A stretch of 64,000 nt of DNA from Deltaproteobacteria bacterium. GTDB taxonomy: Bacteria > Desulfobacterota > Deferrimicrobia > Deferrimicrobiales > Deferrimicrobiaceae. The translations under genes were made by a program, and so were the position numbers. Location: contig JACRIV010000025.1 in NCBI GenBank assembly GCA_016220005.1, positions 1,359 to 65,358 of the forward strand, in the 5' to 3' direction. The notes below the pieces were generated by a model, which saw only the letters and a program-made list of their open reading frames with translations, was not told where the DNA came from and made no database searches. This document shows, piece after piece, positions 3,223-63,631 of the stretch (position 1 is the stretch's first letter; each line of letters starts with the position of its first letter).

Positions 3223-3692
3223 GCGTCGCCTTCTCCGACACGGCGCGGCGGGAGCTCGAGGAGATCCTGTCGCGCTACCCGAACAAGGAGGCGGCGATCC
3301 TGCCGGCCCTGCACCTGGCGCAGCGGGAGTTCGGATACGTCTCCGACGAGGCGATCGTGCACGTGGCGGAGCTTCTGGGGTTCACGCCGGCGCGGATCGA
3401 GGGGGTGGCGAGCTTTTACACGATGTACAACCGCAAGCCCGTGGGGAGGTACCACCTGCAGATCTGCCGCAACCTCTCCTGCTCCCTCCTGGGCGCCGAG
3501 CACCTGATCGAGCACGTTTCCAAGAAGCTCAGGATCAACCCGGGGGAGACCACGCCGGACGGGAAGTTCACCCTGTCGAAGGTGGAATGTCTGGGAAGCT
3601 GCGGCACCGCCCCGGTCATGCAGGTCAACGACGACTATCACGAGAACCTGACCGAGGAGAAGATCGACTCTCTCCTCGACAGGCTTCCCTAG
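3219..3692 (+). CDS. nuoE: NADH-quinone oxidoreductase subunit E (24 kDa, 2Fe-2S)
   Basis: GTG at 3219 overlaps the nuoD stop. Thioredoxin-like 2Fe-2S motifs C..C...C..C are present (ICRNLSC ... CLGSCGTAP). Confidence 0.85.
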   Translation: MSVAFSDTARRELEEILSRYPNKEAAILPALHLAQREFGYVSDEAIVHVAELLGFTPARIEGVASFYTMYNRKPVGRYHLQICRNLSCSLLGAEHLIEHVSKKLRINPGETTPDGKFTLSKVECLGSCGTAPVMQVNDDYHENLTEEKIDSLLDRLP

Positions 3693-3712
3693 CGGGACGG
3701 AACGGGACGACG

Positions 3713-4981
3713 ATGGAGACGGTCCTCACCACCCACTTCGCCGACGAGCGATACCGCCACGTCGACACGTACGTGCAGTACGGCGGGTACTCGGCGCTGC
3801 GCAAGGCGTTCTCTTGCCCCAAGGAGCGGATCGTCGAGGAGGTCAGGAAGGCGAACTTGCGCGGCCGCGGCGGCGCGGGATTCCCGGCGGGGGTCAAGTG
3901 GGGGTTTCTCCCGAAGGACCTCTCCCGGCCGCGGATCCTCGTGATCAACGCGGACGAGGGGGAGCCGGGGACGTTCAAGGACCGTCAGATCATGAGCAGG
4001 GGGCCCCACCTCCTGATCGAAGGGATCGCCATCGCCTCCTACGCCATGACGATTCATTCCACCTACATCTACATCCGGGGGGAGTTCGTCCGCGAGGCGA
4101 AGATCATGGAGGAGGCGGTCGCCGAGGCCTACGCGAAGGGGTTCTTGGGGAAAAACATCCTGGGATCCGGGTTCCACCTCGACGTTTACGTCCACCGCGG
4201 CGCGGGCGCCTACATCTGCGGCGAGGAGACCTCGCTCATCAACTCCCTCGAGGGGAAGCGGGGATGGCCCCGGATCAAGCCCCCCTTCCCGGCTTCGGTC
4301 GGCGCCTTTGGGCTGCCCACGATCGTGAACAACGTGGAGACGATCGCCGACGTGCCGTGGATCGTCAACAACGGCGGAGAGAAGTTCGCCTCCCTCGGGG
4401 TGGAGAAGAACGGCGGGACCCGCCTGATCGGCGTCAGCGGCCCGGTGAACCGGCCCGGCGTGTACGAGCTGTCGGCGGGGGTGCTCCTGCGGGAGGTCAT
4501 CTACACGCACGCCGGGGGCTTAAAGGACGGCAAGCAGCTCAAGGCGGTGATCCCCGGCGGGTCGTCCACCCCGGTCCTGCGTCCCGACGAGATCGACGTG
4601 ACCTTCGACATCGAGTCGATGGGGAAAATCGGGACGATGCCGGGGTCGGGCGGCGTCATCGTCATCCCGGAAGGCGCCTGCATGGTCCGGGCCCTCTCGG
4701 TGCTGATGAATTTCTACGCGCACGAGTCGTGCGGCCAGTGCACCCCGTGCCGCGAGGGCACCGGGTGGCTGGCCAAGATCGTGGGCCGCATCGAGAACGG
4801 GCAGGGGCGCGAGGGGGATATCGAGCTCATCCTGGACGTGTGCGACAACATGATGGGAAGGACGATCTGCCCGCTGGCCGACGCCGCGGTGATGCCCGCC
4901 CAGTCGTTCATCTGGAAGTTCCGCGAGGAGTTCGACCGGCACATCGCGGACAAAAAATGCCCGTTCGGGAATAAATTCTAG
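3713..4981 (+). CDS. nuoF: NADH-quinone oxidoreductase subunit F (51 kDa, FMN/NADH-binding, 4Fe-4S)
   Basis: Internal ATG at codon 43 of track ORF 3587-4981. Motifs GRGGAGFP, GAGAYICGEE and CGQCTPCREG are present. Confidence 0.9.
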   Translation: METVLTTHFADERYRHVDTYVQYGGYSALRKAFSCPKERIVEEVRKANLRGRGGAGFPAGVKWGFLPKDLSRPRILVINADEGEPGTFKDRQIMSRGPHLLIEGIAIASYAMTIHSTYIYIRGEFVREAKIMEEAVAEAYAKGFLGKNILGSGFHLDVYVHRGAGAYICGEETSLINSLEGKRGWPRIKPPFPASVGAFGLPTIVNNVETIADVPWIVNNGGEKFASLGVEKNGGTRLIGVSGPVNRPGVYELSAGVLLREVIYTHAGGLKDGKQLKAVIPGGSSTPVLRPDEIDVTFDIESMGKIGTMPGSGGVIVIPEGACMVRALSVLMNFYAHESCGQCTPCREGTGWLAKIVGRIENGQGREGDIELILDVCDNMMGRTICPLADAAVMPAQSFIWKFREEFDRHIADKKCPFGNKF

Positions 4982-8991: not shown

Positions 8992-11015
8992 GCGGGATCC
9001 TCGACTACCTCTGGCTCGTCCCGGCGCTGCCGCTCCTGGGGGTCGTCCTCAACGGGGCGATCGCCCTCTTCTCCGAGCGGCCGCTCCTGCTGGCGGAAGC
9101 GGGCCACGAAGAAGCGGGCCATGGCCATGGCGATGCGCGTGGCGGAGATGAAGCCCCGGCGCCCTACCGGAAGCTCGTCGCCCTCATCGGCCCGGGGGTT
9201 GTGGGCGCGGCGTTCGCCGTTTCGCTCCTGTGCGTGCTCCAGCTCGCCGCAAGGGCTCCCCAAGACCGGCTCTTCGTCCAGGTCCTCTTCCCGTGGATCC
9301 AGGCGGGCGGCTTCACCGGTTCCGCGGCGCTCCAGCTCGACCCGCTCTCCGCGGTGATGATCCTCGTCGTCACCGGCGTCGGCTTCCTCATCCACGTCTA
9401 TTCCGTCGGGTACATGTCCCACGAGAAGGCGTTCGCCCGGTACTTCGTCTACCTGAACCTCTTCACTTTCGCGATGCTCACCCTGGTCCTGGGCAGCAAC
9501 TATCTCGTGATGTTCGTGGGCTGGGAGGGCGTGGGGCTGTGCTCCTACCTCCTGATCGGGTACTGGTACGAGAAGCAGAGCGCCTCCGACGCGGGGAAAA
9601 AGGCGTTCATCGTCAACCGGATCGGCGACTTCGGGTTCATCCTCGGGGTGTTCCTCCTCTTCTGGACCTTCGGGTCGGTCGACTACACCGAGGTCTTCGC
9701 GCGGATCCCGGCCCTTTCGGGCAACGGGACCCTGACCACCGAAATCGCCACGGCGATCACGCTGCTGCTCTTCGTGGGCGCCGTCGGCAAGTCGGCCCAG
9801 ATCCCCCTCTATGTCTGGCTGCCGGACGCGATGGAAGGCCCCACGCCGGTCTCCGCCCTCATCCACGCGGCGACGATGGTCACGGCGGGGGTCTACATGG
9901 TCGCCCGCTCGAGCGCCCTCTACATGCTGGCCCCCGTCTCGATGGGCGCGGTGGCGGCGGTGGGGGCGGTGACGGCCATCTTCTCCGCGACGATCGGCAT
10001 CACCCAGAACGACATCAAGAGGGTGCTCGCCTACTCGACCGTCTCCCAGCTCGGTTACATGTTCCTGGCCTGCGGAGTCGGGGCGTTCACCGCCGGGATC
10101 TTCCACCTGATGACTCACGCCTTCTTCAAGGCGCTGCTCTTCCTGGCTTCCGGGTCGGTGATCCACGCCCTCTCCGGCCAGCAGGACATGCGGAAGATGG
10201 GGAGCCTCAAGAAACACCTCCCGATCACGTTTCCCACGATGTTCATCGCGACGCTGGCGATCGCGGGGATCCCGGGGCTGTCGGGGTTTTTCTCCAAGGA
10301 CGAGATCCTGTGGAAGTCGTTTTCCTCCGAGCACGGACACCTCGCGTTGTGGGCGATCGGCACGCTGGCCGCGGGGGTCACGGCGTTCTACATGTTCCGC
10401 CTGGTGTTCATGACGTTTTATGGGGAATCCCGGATGGAGCCCGCCGTAGAGAAGCACGTTCACGAGTCCCCCTGGTCGATGACCGTCCCGCTCATGCTCC
10501 TGGCGGTCTTCTCGGTCATCGGCGGCTGGGTCGGTGTCCCCGAGGTCCTGGGGGGGCACAACTATTTCGAGGAATGGATGGCGCCGGTCTTCGGCCACGG
10601 GGCGGCCCACGAGGCTGCCCATCACCCCGCGGCGCTGGAGCTAGCCCTGATGGCCGGCTCGGTCCTGGTCGCGCTGTGCGGGATCGCGCTTGCGTACTAC
10701 CTCTACCGCGTCCGGACGAAGAAGCCGGAAGAGATCGCGGAAAAGGTCCCCGGGCTCTACGACGTGGTTCTCAACAAATATTACGTCGACGAGATCTACG
10801 ACATCGTCATCGTCCGCAAGGTGGTCAACGGGTCGATCTGGCTGTGGAACGCCTTCGACGCGGCGTTCATCGACGGGATCGTCAACGGGATCGCGGCGGT
10901 GGTGCGGGGCGCGGGCGACGGCGTCCGGCGCCTGCAGACCGGCGTGGTGGGGAACTACGCGTTCTCCCTGCTGCTCGGCGCGGTGCTCGTCGTCGGCTAC
11001 ATTCTCTTGCGATAG
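8985..11015 (+). CDS. nuoL: NADH-quinone oxidoreductase subunit L
   Basis: ATG at 8985 overlaps the nuoK stop. ~676-aa antiporter-like subunit with a long C-terminal amphipathic helix region. The track ORF 8682-11015 carries a spurious N-terminus. Confidence 0.9.
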
Positions 11016-22597: not shown

Positions 22598-22659
22598 TTG
22601 TTTCGATCAAGGGGCGATGGAGTTCGCCTAAAAACCGCCTGTCTTACCGGACGGCTAAT

Positions 22660-22698
22660 GACTCCTGCGATGACGACACGTCGCAGGAGTTTTTTTTT
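22660..22698 (+). terminator. Rho-independent terminator
   Basis: 10-bp perfect stem ACTCCTGCGA / TCGCAGGAGT with a 10-nt loop, followed by a run of 9 T. Confidence 0.6.
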
Positions 22699-28738: not shown

Positions 28739-28751
28739 CGAGGCGGTGGAG

Positions 28752-28849
28752 ACGGGCATGGATACAAGGCGCGCGACCGAGGGCCCCGGAGGCGTAGTTT
28801 AAACTACGTCGAGGAGCCCGACCGAGCGCAACGCAGTAGACATGCCCGT
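28752..28849. repeat. Symmetric element: 16-bp perfect palindrome CGTAGTTTAAACTACG (28793-28808) centred between 9-bp inverted repeats ACGGGCATG (28752-28760) and CATGCCCGT (28841-28849)
   Basis: Read directly from sequence. All three elements share the same centre of symmetry (28800/28801). The right arm overlaps the ATG of the spurious upstream ORF. It lies 68 nt upstream of the response-regulator gene start. Confidence 0.5.
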
Positions 28850-28916
28850 ATCCGCCGCCGTAGCAGAAGCCTGGCGAGAAATGCGGGCTAAGGCCGGCGA
28901 AGCGGGAGGTCATCCG

Positions 28917-36165: not shown

Positions 36166-36242
36166 CGGGATGTGGCTCAGCCTGGTAGAGCACCTGGTTC
36201 GGGACCAGGGGGTCGCTGGTTCAAATCCAGTCATCCCGACCA
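36166..36242 (+). tRNA. tRNA-Pro (anticodon CGG)
   Basis: Cloverleaf read from sequence: acceptor CGGGATG/CATCCCG, D-arm GCTC-AGCCTGGTA-GAGC, anticodon stem CCTGG/CCAGG with loop TTCGGGA, T-arm GCTGG-TTCAAAT-CCAGT, encoded CCA. Confidence 0.9.
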
Positions 36243-61170: not shown

Positions 61171-62700
61171 TCAGCCGCCTCCCTTGACCTTCGCCATGAG
61201 GTAGTGTGCGACGGCGTCGATCTCTTCTTCCCTGAGCCCCAGCTTCGGCATCGACGGGTAGCCGGGGTCCACCTTGACCGGATTCCGTATGAAGCTTTTC
61301 AGTTCTTCGACGTCGCCCCTGTACTTCGGCACGACCAGGTTCAGCGGGGGGCCGACCACCCTGCTCTCGAACCGGTGGCACGCCGTGCAGGCGGTGTCGA
61401 ACACCGCCTTCCCCTTTTCCACACCCGGTGGTGCTGCCGCGACGGGCTCTTCCCGGGGCGTTCTTCCCGTGACCTTCGTCAGCAGATACCGGGCGACGGC
61501 GTCGATCTCCTCGTCCTTGAGCCCCAGTTGCGGCATCAGGGGATAGTCGGGGTTCACCCTGGCGGGGTCCTTGATGTAGCTTTTCAGTTTTTCGAGGTTC
61601 CCCTGATACTTCGACACGACCTCGTTCAGTGGAGGACCCACGATCCTGCTCTCGAACAGGTGACAGGCCCTGCATACGGTCTGGAACACGGTCCTCCCCT
61701 TTTCGACGGCCGTTTCCGCCGCCGCGGGAGGTTTTCCGGGAGCCACCCGTCCGAGGAAGACGTTGCCCACGACCGCCCGGTCGCCGGCGAGCACGGCGAC
61801 AAACATGAGGGCGAACAGGATCGATACGCGGGCGCCCGGCCTTGCTGTCTGATCTTCCGGAAAGAGATAGCAAACCAGGAAGACGGACAGCGCCAAGAGC
61901 AGGACGATCGCCGCCGCGGCGAACACCTCCGCCGAGAGCCCCGTGTCGGGGAGGCTGATCAGGGCGAGTACGACGAGCGCGGGAACGGCCAGCGCGGAAG
62001 CAAGGGCGAGGGCTGATCCGACGGATCGGACGTATTTGCGGTAATCGGGGTCCGGCTCTGCTTTTCCCGTAGGAGGCCGGACAAGGGATAGAAGAACGAT
62101 TCCGCCGGTCAGCCCGAAGGACAAGGCCAGGAATAAGAAAAAGCCCGTGAGAGATTTCCAGGAAAGGATAAATACCGGGTTGCTGCGGATCAGAGGCAGT
62201 TTGTCCGGGTTGAAAAGAGTGCCCAGCAGGAGGAATAACAGGAAGGAACCAACGACGATCGCGAGATCGCCCGCCGTGCCTGCCCGGAATCGCAGGACGG
62301 AGAGATCCGCTTTCTGCCGAAGGGCGGACCGGTACAGGGAGAGAAGCACGCAGCCCGAAAGGAGGGCTCCGAACGGGAGGGCCCAGGAGAGCCACGGAAA
62401 GGGGCTCTGTCCCGAGAGGATCCGCTCGCAAAGGTAGGCGATGAGGGGAAAAGGGAGGAGGCCCGCGACGAACAGTAATTTTTCATTTACCGTGATGGTT
62501 TCGATCAGCTCCTTGGAAAGCCGCAAGGATCTTTCTTCCCGGTTTTCCCTCCCGAAAAAGTTCAGGACGAGGGAGGCGGTCGACCCGCCGATGACGATCC
62601 CGAGGAAGGGAAGGTAGACGAGAAGGGTGGCCATAAGGCAATACAGGAAAAGAGGGAACGTTTCCGGCGACAAGTCCAAGGGGCTCCCCGGCGGACTCAT
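61171..62700 (-). CDS. Polytopic membrane protein with two C-terminal class-I monoheme cytochrome c domains (CRACH, CTACH)
   Basis: About 8 TM helices over residues 1-330, then two ~85-aa cytochrome c domains, each with CXXCH and a distal Met (PLMPQ / PSMPK). Ends 4 nt before the actA start. Confidence 0.7.
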   Translation of the reverse strand: MSPPGSPLDLSPETFPLFLYCLMATLLVYLPFLGIVIGGSTASLVLNFFGRENREERSLRLSKELIETITVNEKLLFVAGLLPFPLIAYLCERILSGQSPFPWLSWALPFGALLSGCVLLSLYRSALRQKADLSVLRFRAGTAGDLAIVVGSFLLFLLLGTLFNPDKLPLIRSNPVFILSWKSLTGFFLFLALSFGLTGGIVLLSLVRPPTGKAEPDPDYRKYVRSVGSALALASALAVPALVVLALISLPDTGLSAEVFAAAAIVLLLALSVFLVCYLFPEDQTARPGARVSILFALMFVAVLAGDRAVVGNVFLGRVAPGKPPAAAETAVEKGRTVFQTVCRACHLFESRIVGPPLNEVVSKYQGNLEKLKSYIKDPARVNPDYPLMPQLGLKDEEIDAVARYLLTKVTGRTPREEPVAAAPPGVEKGKAVFDTACTACHRFESRVVGPPLNLVVPKYRGDVEELKSFIRNPVKVDPGYPSMPKLGLREEEIDAVAHYLMAKVKGGG

Positions 62701-62951
62701 TCATTTCTCCTGGCGTGCTTCGGAACTGTCGGCGGGAAGAAGAAACAGGGCGGATCGACGACGATGGCGGCCTGCTGGCGCGGTCGGTGCATCGGTCCTC
62801 TTTAGCGTTAGTAGATTGACCGCATTCCGCTAATAGAAAAAATTTTATATCCAAATTGCTTCGATCTTTACGAAATATTCACGTTCCCTTCCGATCGGAC
62901 ATACCTGGGATGCGCGATCCCCGAAAGAGCTTCGTATTTTTTCAGGGGCTT

Positions 62952-63133
62952 AGGAGGTTAGCCAGAATAACTTGAACATCTTGCATCCCATCTTCGGGCC
63001 ATCTTTGCCCGCTCCTCATTCGCAAAATCCTCGACGTAGCGTTAGCTACGCCTGCGGTTTTGCTCAATCGGAGCAGGCAAATCTGACCCAAATCTGGGCG
63101 CAATCTTGTCCAACTTATTCTGGCTAACCTCCT
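62952..63133. repeat. 182-bp imperfect long palindrome (nested inverted repeats) in the ACIII upstream intergenic region
   Basis: Outer arms AGGAGGTTAGCCAGAATAACTTG (62952-62974) and CAACTTATTCTGGCTAACCTCCT (63111-63133), matching 22 of 23. Inner arms TTTGCCCGCTCC / GGAGCAGGCAAA. Central hairpin GTAGC-GTTA-GCTAC at 63036-63049. All share one symmetry centre. Locally lower GC. Confidence 0.55.
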
Positions 63134-63229
63134 TACGGCGCGGAGAGGAGGAAGCAGCCCCTCTCGGCGCGCGTGATCGTCCGGCGGGCGGACCGGCAGC
63201 TCGAGACGTGCATATGCCCTCCTCGAGCC

Positions 63230-63631
63230 CTATTTCCCCTGGGGGAGATACTTCCGGCACGCCTCTATGTTTACCACGTGGGCCTCCCGCATGTCGGCGA
63301 AAAACGTCTTCTCTTCGTCCGTCATCTCCGACTGGGGGATCTCGTCGATCTTCCGGACGACCCACACCTGCCCCTTGACGAGAAGAACGAGGCGCTCCTC
63401 TTCGCCCAGGAGCGCAAGGACCTTTTCCGCGAAGGCGCCCACCTTCTGGTTGGGTGAGGCCTCCCGCGCCTGGATCAGCCGGTACAGGCCGGCGCAGAAT
63501 CTTCCTTCGTCGTTCCGAAGGAAGGTCAGGAACTCCTTCTTCTCTCCCTCCGGCGCCTCTTCCGCCATCTTCGCCAGGCACCTTACTCCGGCGCGCTCGG
63601 CAGTAAGCAGCTCCTGCATCCGGTCGATCAT
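63230..63631 (-). CDS. Hypothetical protein (133 aa, helical, balanced composition)
   Basis: Protein-like composition, unlike the overlapping GC-artefact ORFs 63042-63647 (-) and 63267-63749 (+). No family was recognised confidently. Confidence 0.5.
   Translation of the reverse strand: MIDRMQELLTAERAGVRCLAKMAEEAPEGEKKEFLTFLRNDEGRFCAGLYRLIQAREASPNQKVGAFAEKVLALLGEEERLVLLVKGQVWVVRKIDEIPQSEMTDEEKTFFADMREAHVVNIEACRKYLPQGK

Follow-up and report, generated by a model that had tools for sequence, protein, structure and literature searches.

We analysed a window of 64,000 nucleotides from a Deltaproteobacteria bacterium of the family Deferrimicrobiaceae (contig JACRIV010000025.1), which carries a long palindrome at positions 62952-63133, close to genes for an alternative complex III (ACIII). 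The neighbouring genes all lie on the minus strand. The upstream gene (63230..63631) encodes a 133-aa DUF6306 protein (Pfam PF19825, E = 1e-24), and the downstream gene (61171..62700) a membrane protein of 509 aa with a pair of cytochrome c domains (Pfam Cytochrom_C, twice). The open reading frames (ORFs) that follow carry Cytochrome_C7, Molybdopterin/4Fe-4S and NrfD domains, as in the ActA-, ActB- and ActC-like genes of ACIII. The repeat finder placed the arms of the palindrome at 62952-63040 and 63045-63133 (89 nt each, 4-nt loop, ungapped complementarity of 71%), and with a seed of 10 and a minimum length of 30 this was the only long inverted repeat found in the 64-kb window. The outermost 19 bp (AGGAGGTTAGCCAGAATAA) were perfectly complementary; the window holds only these two sites for the sequence, and none was expected by chance. 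Together with the next four bases they account for the 22 of 23 complementary positions given in a preliminary description of the locus, whose central GTAGC-GTTA-GCTAC hairpin is likewise seen in the sequence. The GC content across the palindrome was 0.44-0.52, compared to 0.57-0.70 in 200-nt windows of the genes on either side, so the reported drop below background was borne out. The two short ORFs described within the palindrome exist and are artefacts.

The extent of 182 bp is correct for the palindrome, but the element proper is slightly shorter. End-to-end alignment with 13 other copies, all 179-181 bp long and described below, set its bounds at 62953-63132 (180 bp, GGAGG...CCTCC), while the bases at the two ends of the palindrome, 62952 and 63133, are already part of a 3-bp direct repeat on its flanks. 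In the element proper the outer 18 bp are perfectly complementary, or 19 if one base of the repeat is counted at each end. The element is assigned to the minus strand by the alignment, by nhmmer (E = 1e-57 on the minus strand, 3e-11 on the plus strand) and by the RNA fold. This is the strand that the whole family defines as forward, and at this locus it is also the coding strand of both flanking genes. Read in this direction, the element starts 97 nt past the DUF6306 stop codon and ends about 250 nt ahead of the start of the cytochrome c gene. Its parts are a 5' flanking direct repeat (63133..63135), a 5' outer arm (63108..63132), a conserved rod-shaped core of 119 nt (62983..63101), a 3' outer arm complementary to the first (62953..62977), and a 3' flanking direct repeat (62950..62952), all on the minus strand. 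Both direct repeats read TAA on the minus strand and TTA on the plus strand, and they are the two halves of a putative target-site duplication, for which the preliminary description had proposed a check. The outer arms are terminal inverted repeats and form the variable part of the family.

The 206-nt stretch 62940-63145 was predicted to fold at -95.7 kcal/mol on the plus strand (z = -9.1) and at -121.9 kcal/mol on the minus strand (z = -14.0), and none of the shuffled sequences was as stable as the real one on either strand. The 180 nt alone gave -119.2 kcal/mol on the forward strand vs -87.8 kcal/mol on its complement, and the same asymmetry was obtained with DNA energy parameters (-61.4 vs -45.7). 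Both parameter sets thus favour the forward strand in these predictions, which do not tell RNA from single-stranded DNA. The gap of 26 kcal/mol between the strands at this locus is due to G.U pairs, of which the minus-strand fold contains six and the plus-strand fold one. The RNA folding check set out in the preliminary description therefore revealed a very stable structure. The intergenic position and a GC content poorer than that of the surroundings would agree with a palindrome that arose by chance or with a bidirectional intrinsic terminator set between two transcription units; both are hardly credible, given z scores of -9 to -14 against shuffles, the absence of a T-run after the stem on either strand, and homologues that elsewhere lie inside operons.

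These homologues were reached through translation. One minus-strand frame is open across the whole element, and its 60-aa translation was used as a query. A phmmer search of 1.84 billion representatives yielded 32 matches at E <= 0.001; apart from three large ones, they were ORFs 56-321 aa in length that matched most of the query at 45-71% identity, and several had the 'peptide' in common while their flanks were unrelated. A profile search yielded 83 matches, none with a Pfam domain. Three of them carried names other than 'hypothetical protein' and came from metagenome-assembled genomes (MAGs) of Pseudomonadota or Gammaproteobacteria, two from the same MAG. Among the large matches, P0126 was rejected on reading as an unrelated low-complexity repeat protein, and P0121 and P0145, with 30-32% identity to the C-terminal part of the query only, were assumed to be unrelated. 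As a side observation for annotation, at least 83 clusters of domain-free 'hypothetical proteins' in the databases (among P0122-P0224) are translations of this repeat family and could be masked. P0132 (a cytochrome c) and P0150 (an enzyme) are real proteins whose called start was extended into a copy, and within P0136 half an element is duplicated.

The open frame and the peptide-like conservation (RPDLGQI...RWPEDGM), which retrieves dozens of database proteins, would also be expected of a small protein-coding gene, as the relatives have been annotated. This explanation is extremely improbable. At the apex the copies differ in length by single bases, which moves the 'conserved peptide' from one frame to another; several of them contain stops in every forward frame (all three in the L061a and L061b copies), a conserved start codon or ribosome-binding site is absent, and the substitutions track base pairing instead of codons.

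From the fetched contigs we recovered 14 unique full DNA copies, including the one in the window, together with partial ones; the hosts include Pseudomonadota MAGs. Copies were often close to each other. Two (L047 and L048) were 190 kb apart on one 264-kb contig, and another contig of the same sample (L059) carried two copies only 4 kb apart. A single scaffold (L061) contained, within 20 kb, three full copies (3595-3786, 9613-9806 and 10062-10248) and a truncated right end (about 100-143); two of the three full copies were just 250 bp apart, and all were antisense to the neighbouring genes. The copy density in these other organisms was thus 2 to 3.5 per 20-kb locus or per contig. The genes beside the copies differed from case to case and included those for hopanoid synthesis, purE/purC, heme synthesis, acyl-CoA dehydrogenase/MFS, lpxC, Rieske/cytochrome b, radical SAM and cytochrome c. 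A bias in orientation was considered and no rule was found: where the flanking genes were on the same strand, five copies were sense and three antisense to them, and among copies found without ORF calls (those ascertained in this way include L059:5868, L061:3595 and L061:9613) the ratio was two to two. Judged from these sequences, the family spans at least Pseudomonadota MAGs and a Deferrimicrobiaceae-like genome.

The 14 copies were aligned (alignment A7), and from the initial GG to the final CC each was 179-181 bp long. The trinucleotides on the two flanks were identical in 9 of 14 copies (TAA/TAA in five, TTA/TTA in four). In the ten copies with TWA on both flanks, the middle base agreed in nine (one-sided binomial p = 0.011). 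This pattern points to a 3-bp TWA target-site duplication, because an extension of the hairpin would instead place TAA opposite TTA. A 2-bp TA duplication of the IS630 type does not fit the flanks, and a 4-bp TWAG duplication fits 6 of 14 copies vs 9 of 14 for the 3-bp TWA.

The consensus structure of the family contains 67 pairs in four helices, and 94.6% of the cells in the alignment are paired. Compensatory double changes were observed at 33 of the 67 pairs; none of 500 shuffles reached any of the measures, and slid controls gave 31-47% pairing. In the outer 25-bp arms (A7 columns 14-38 and 171-195) the mean pairwise identity was only 55-60%, yet 18 of 24 pairs showed compensatory double changes, and 91.7% of the cells in the outer helix were paired across the 14 copies. 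The tips vary widely (GGAGGTTAGCC, GGGCTCGCGAA, GGGACGAGGCC, and GGCGTCGAGCA in L065). Matched changes were found even between neighbouring copies: arm position 7 is A, T or G in the three L061 copies and is changed on both arms together, and L047 and L059 differ by two further changes that are matched on both arms. An apparent Shine-Dalgarno/anti-Shine-Dalgarno pair at the base of the stem (AGGAGG...CCUCCU) was rejected as a variant of the window's own arm, since other copies have GGGCYC or GGGACG there.

The 119-nt core, with a mean pairwise identity of 78%, is built differently. It contains 2x2 GA/GA internal loops spaced 11 nt apart, of which the second is kept in 12 of 14 copies, and in one subfamily Watson-Crick pairs take the place of the first; a 6x6 loop that reads GAUUGA/GAAUGA in the window and has the form GA-NN-GA on both sides across the family; and two invariant bulged A's. 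At the top is the best conserved module, the apical hairpin (63034..63052, minus strand; GGCGTAGC-TAAC-GCTACGT), which as RNA reads GGCGUAG-loop-CUACGU with a GCA/GA loop beneath. The pattern GGCGTAG-N3-9-CTACGT occurred twice in the window (none expected), once in each of the six other full copies searched and once in L001, and in the L061 copies the apical hairpin carries two compensatory changes. A resemblance of the apex to the ssoA CS-6 motif (TAGCGT) was dismissed, as it is not conserved among copies. As for the strand, every one of the 14 copies folded better on the forward strand than on its complement, with differences of 7.5-44 kcal/mol. The consensus pairs included 111 G.U cells at 30 positions vs 9 A.C cells at 9 positions, and several G.U pairs were nearly invariant (12-13 of 14 copies). 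Prediction of the consensus structure used the forward strand and so favours G.U; the comparison of energies copy by copy is free of that bias. The importance that had been attached to the fold is thus upheld by stems that co-vary across the family and by one strand that is consistently more stable.

A different combination of parts was observed in a Gammaproteobacteria MAG (GCA_018822395.1, L065:1-210). Its subterminal arms match those of the window subfamily, with 24 identical bases (GATGCAAGATGTTCAAGTTATTCT), another palindrome, rich in GC, takes the place of its apical module, and the terminal 11 bases are also different. From this comparison the apex seems to behave as a module, and both apex and tips look exchangeable.

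The orthologous junction was examined in relatives. With a profile of the cytochrome c protein as query, 34 metagenomic loci were obtained, and in the five closest (L009-L013) DUF6306 still lies upstream of the cytochrome c gene; the DUF6306 protein of the window is 80-81% identical to its orthologues in L012 and L013. No long inverted repeat and no similarity to the element was detected at the junction in any of the five. Four of them (L010-L013) carry a 117-aa cupin gene between the DUF6306 and cytochrome c genes, and L009 has a VKOR/thioredoxin gene on the opposite strand. In the window, tblastn detected nothing of the cupin coding sequence. Aligned to L012 and L013, the window does show a probable remnant of the cupin gene at 63202..63222 on the minus strand (GGAGGG...ATGCACGTCTCG), which looks like a ribosome-binding site and the first four codons, and similarity to L012 picks up again at 62803. 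By sequence comparison, the junction appears to be a variable spot, with about 400 bp around the palindrome specific to this lineage; besides acquiring the element, it would have lost the cupin gene that relatives still carry. Two short GC-rich hairpins lie between the DUF6306 stop and the element, at 63138-63170 (11-bp stem, 91%) and at 63199-63228 (15-bp palindrome, 80%). Neither has a U-tract, and the second overlaps the remnant of the cupin start.

The evidence agrees with the descriptive definition of a MITE (miniature inverted-repeat transposable element): the sequence is 180 bp long and non-coding, it has terminal inverted repeats and a flanking target-site duplication, its copies are dispersed and locally multiple in other organisms, truncated remnants occur, and it is absent from orthologous positions. 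We put the probability that the palindrome is a copy of a mobile, non-autonomous hairpin family of the MITE type at about 0.8-0.9. Taken as a whole, the best explanation, with a probability of 0.8, is a 180-bp non-coding MITE-type copy that was inserted at a duplicated TWA in the stretch that separates the DUF6306 gene from the cytochrome c/ACIII genes. The preliminary description had named a MITE-like insertion as one possibility, and the homologous 180-bp elements in many unrelated contexts and taxa, the flanking repeats, the presence of several copies per contig, the truncated remnant and the absence of the element from the DUF6306/cytochrome c junction of five relatives now speak for it.

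Its other proposal was a structured RNA (attenuator, processing site or insulator) specific to the operon, which would have evolved in the ACIII leader. The sense orientation between the DUF6306 and cytochrome c/ACIII genes and the very stable fold are in keeping with such a device, and the copy in L046 is also located directly upstream of a cytochrome c gene. Other copies, however, adjoin genes for hopanoid, purine (purE/purC) and heme synthesis, lpxC, Rieske/cytochrome b (bc1) and a radical SAM protein next to an AMP-binding enzyme; the element is absent at the junction in the five relatives that conserve the synteny; direct repeats flank it; and it has neither a U-tract nor the alternative pairing of an attenuator. 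An operon-specific RNA is therefore very unlikely, and, as far as can be judged from sequence, the distribution of the copies has already largely refuted it. The element is a passenger in the ACIII operon, not a device specific to it or a dedicated 182-nt leader structure.

Several observations weigh against the MITE-type interpretation. An autonomous partner, that is, an insertion sequence (IS) with matching ends, was found neither in the window nor in the roughly 450 kb of loci that were fetched, which is a weak negative, and no arm-like sequence was detected outside the copies. The 64-kb window holds just one full copy, and scans with exact arms revealed no other copy of the window's subfamily in 185,579 species genomes or in metagenomes. 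The flanking repeats are imperfect in 5 of 14 copies (one mismatch in four, two mismatches in one). A clean empty site was not found, as the orthologous junction differs by more than the element and includes the cupin gene. The terminal 10-25 bp are the least conserved part and the core the most, also in the comparison with L065, which is atypical for a MITE moved by a DDE-type enzyme. Finally, the copies lie in both orientations relative to their neighbours, so that a function in host mRNA provides no simple explanation of the strand-specific fold.

The arm scans were made before the conserved core was known and used the variable part of the family. With the 18-mer arm, seven single-arm chance matches and no paired arms were obtained in the 185,579 species genomes, where about 17 chance matches were expected (an estimate from the collection size of 596 Gb). 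The 23-mer arm had no match in JGI metagenomes, nor did the 18-mer arm in IMG/VR; the source genome is evidently outside these collections. In viral contigs, one core pattern yielded nine chance 17-mers without a hairpin and another yielded no match, and two copies compared by BLAST with plasmids, phages and E. coli genomes likewise had no match. In Rfam 15, no match overlapped the element at E <= 10, four other copies had none at E <= 1, and no match above the gathering score in the whole window overlapped the element. A full-text literature search with three core sequence strings retrieved no paper.

The core itself was modelled with a covariance model of the 119 nt (R1), which was run over the window with filters off. 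For the main element, the minus strand scored 138 bits and the plus strand 52. A second match, of 49.6 bits on the plus strand (13.7 on the minus strand), covered R1 positions 1-119 with E = 5e-11 and corresponded to a divergent, core-only relative of 116 nt at 28743..28858 (plus strand), which folds at -77.8 kcal/mol (z = -7.6). It has the loops and the apical module of the main element (GGAGGCGTAG-TTTAAA-CTACGTCGAGGA; GGCGTAG...CTACGTCGAGGA), but its stems are different. It has no outer arms and no TWA flanks, and GTAGC is present on both sides. This relative lies in sense orientation between co-oriented genes for a flavoprotein domain and a response regulator. With default filters, R1 found no further match in 351 kb of other loci.

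These data bear on an alternative in which the true functional unit is the core. It would be a structured module, of RNA or of single-stranded DNA, that has a function of its own or is mobilised by way of its hairpin (REPIN/RAYT-like, another HUH-type system or an RNA gene), and the TWA-flanked 180-bp form would be only one vehicle for it. The conservation of the core at 78% vs 55% for the arms argues for it, as do the near-invariant G.U pairs, the invariant bulged A's, the GA/GA loops phased at 11 nt and the better fold of the forward strand in every copy. The relative at 28743-28858 keeps the loops with entirely different stems and without outer arms or TWA flanks, L065 retains arms with a different apex, which indicates modularity, and REPINs also show compensatory changes that keep the hairpin (PMC3116915). 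Against it stand the flanking 3-bp direct repeats, which by the agreement of their middle base indicate a DDE-like insertion with a staggered cut; HUH/RAYT enzymes do not make such repeats. No RAYT-like gene is present in the window or the fetched loci, the foot of the hairpin lacks a REP-style GTAG, the copies occur in both orientations to their neighbours with no conserved promoter seen, and no Rfam family matches. We regard the core as functional unit as the less probable explanation, though one to be taken seriously. If it were correct, the 180-bp TWA-flanked form and the core-only form at 28743-28858 would be two carriers of one module. It is a tentative proposal, and in our estimate a rather improbable one, that the core, with its G.A loops one helical turn apart, acts as RNA or single-stranded DNA and is recognised by a protein through structure instead of end sequence, which would make it either a new hairpin-dependent mobile element, combining REPIN-like selection on the fold with target-site duplication, or a mobile non-coding RNA gene that crosses phyla.

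Returning to the MITE-type interpretation, we propose that the element inserted at a TWA trinucleotide, which would have been duplicated as TAA on the minus strand, between the DUF6306 and cytochrome c/ACIII genes, and that it was probably mobilised in trans by an enzyme making 3-bp staggered cuts. The stems change in a matched fashion and the G.U pairs are kept on the forward strand only, which is why the hairpin of that strand, be it RNA or single-stranded DNA, seems to be needed for propagation or retention. The family is notable for its fixed length of 180 bp and for an interior and a fold that are kept better than the ends, and it raises the question of why a transposon keeps a fold that is specific to one strand and contains G.U pairs as well as phased G.A loops.

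For the mobilising enzyme, our best guess is a DDE transposase of the IS5/PIF-Harbinger type, to which we would give slightly less than even odds. PIF/Harbinger elements prefer TWA targets and have GG-initiated ends, and IS5 itself makes 4-bp duplications. The 3-bp duplications of PIF/Harbinger elements and their relationship to the prokaryotic IS5 family have been described (PMC2213677, PMC12730594). The element resembles the Tourist-type MITEs of PIF/Harbinger (e.g. mPing) and the IS5 family in being small and non-coding, in its GG-starting terminal inverted repeats, in its 3-bp TTA/TAA duplication and in the potential of the whole element to form a hairpin. The 3-bp TWA duplication and the GG-initiated repeats were thus observed; tips conserved in sequence were not. 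Unlike these elements, it has no partner transposase that could be found, its tips are the least and its interior the most conserved part, and copies of one contig or one sample differ by matched changes on both arms. A tblastn search for an IS5-like gene was negative in the window and in the roughly 450 kb of fetched loci, again a weak negative. The ends of E. coli IS5A (GGAAGGTGCGAATAAG) have only the GCGAATAA block in common with the arm of the L059 subfamily, which is a weak lead.

REPINs, which are hairpin-forming REP doublets mobilised by RAYT transposases, are kept by compensatory changes and are thought to act as single-stranded DNA or mRNA (PMC3116915). Like the element, they are non-autonomous hairpin repeats in extragenic space with compensatory changes, tandem clusters and decayed remnants (PMC3116915). 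The differences are considerable. In REPINs the REP 16-mer ends are invariant and the spacer is variable, which is the reverse of the element family, and REPINs have no target duplication, whereas the element has 3-bp direct repeats. The element lacks GTAG at the foot of the stem, and tblastn for a RAYT-like gene was negative in the window and in about 450 kb of fetched loci. Compensatory evolution of the hairpin was therefore the feature observed in common; invariant ends and a GTAG foot without target duplication were not seen.

Correia and ERIC repeats duplicate TA, and their transcripts are processed by RNase III. These repeats, from Neisseria and enterobacteria, respectively, and Chunjie from Geobacter are similar to the element as palindromic repeats of 100-235 bp that lie between the genes of operons without disrupting them and form very stable RNA hairpins. 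Chunjie is inserted in an operon, folds at -98 to -130 kcal/mol and has 21-bp terminal inverted repeats and 9-bp direct repeats (PMC3184786). Its range of folding energies includes the -122 kcal/mol of the element. A closer kinship, with Chunjie as an IS5-type MITE that duplicates TWA, was considered and rejected; given its actual repeats, it is a functional analogue only. None of the three has sequence similarity to the element, and they are confined to a genus or family, whereas the element family spans at least Pseudomonadota MAGs and a Deferrimicrobiaceae-like genome.

The element is probably transcribed as part of the message that runs from DUF6306 to ACIII, because it lies on the sense strand, no promoter- or terminator-like site intervenes, and the orthologous DUF6306 and cytochrome c genes in relatives are closely spaced. 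No promoter-like site was found on the minus strand between the two genes. The spacer also held no terminator-like site on that strand; the only two such sites lie inside the DUF6306 gene. The hairpin was retained in the predicted fold of the entire 561-nt intergenic transcript, and once transcribed the element would adopt this structure at about -120 kcal/mol. It could then serve as a target for a double-strand-specific RNase or as a barrier to stability or translation; by analogy with Correia and ERIC, the outcome might be RNase III cleavage or altered stability of the message. Any local effect on expression would then be a side effect of the insertion and not the work of a purpose-built regulator. 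A measurable effect of the element on ACIII expression is perhaps possible, but we consider it doubtful. If the element is transcribed within this message, the locus would offer a natural test of how a hairpin of -120 kcal/mol affects the expression of a respiratory operon.

The organism has one further record, a 5.3-kb Logan contig (SRR12113407) of identical sequence, and L001 duplicates the locus. The best named protein relatives come from Candidatus Deferrimicrobiaceae or Deltaproteobacteria MAGs (54-56% identity), and the closest unnamed relatives reach 68%. The gene at 61171-62700, the first before the ACIII genes, encodes a multi-pass membrane domain fused to two cytochrome c domains; the Logan gene call begins seven codons later (502 aa). 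Versions of this fusion family of about 430, 500 and 600-690 aa are present among Deferrimicrobiaceae-like metagenomic relatives. Elsewhere in the window, the only Rfam matches were a fluoride riboswitch at 22604-22674 (plus strand; 51.6 bits, above the gathering score) and a tRNA gene at 36166-36239 (plus strand).

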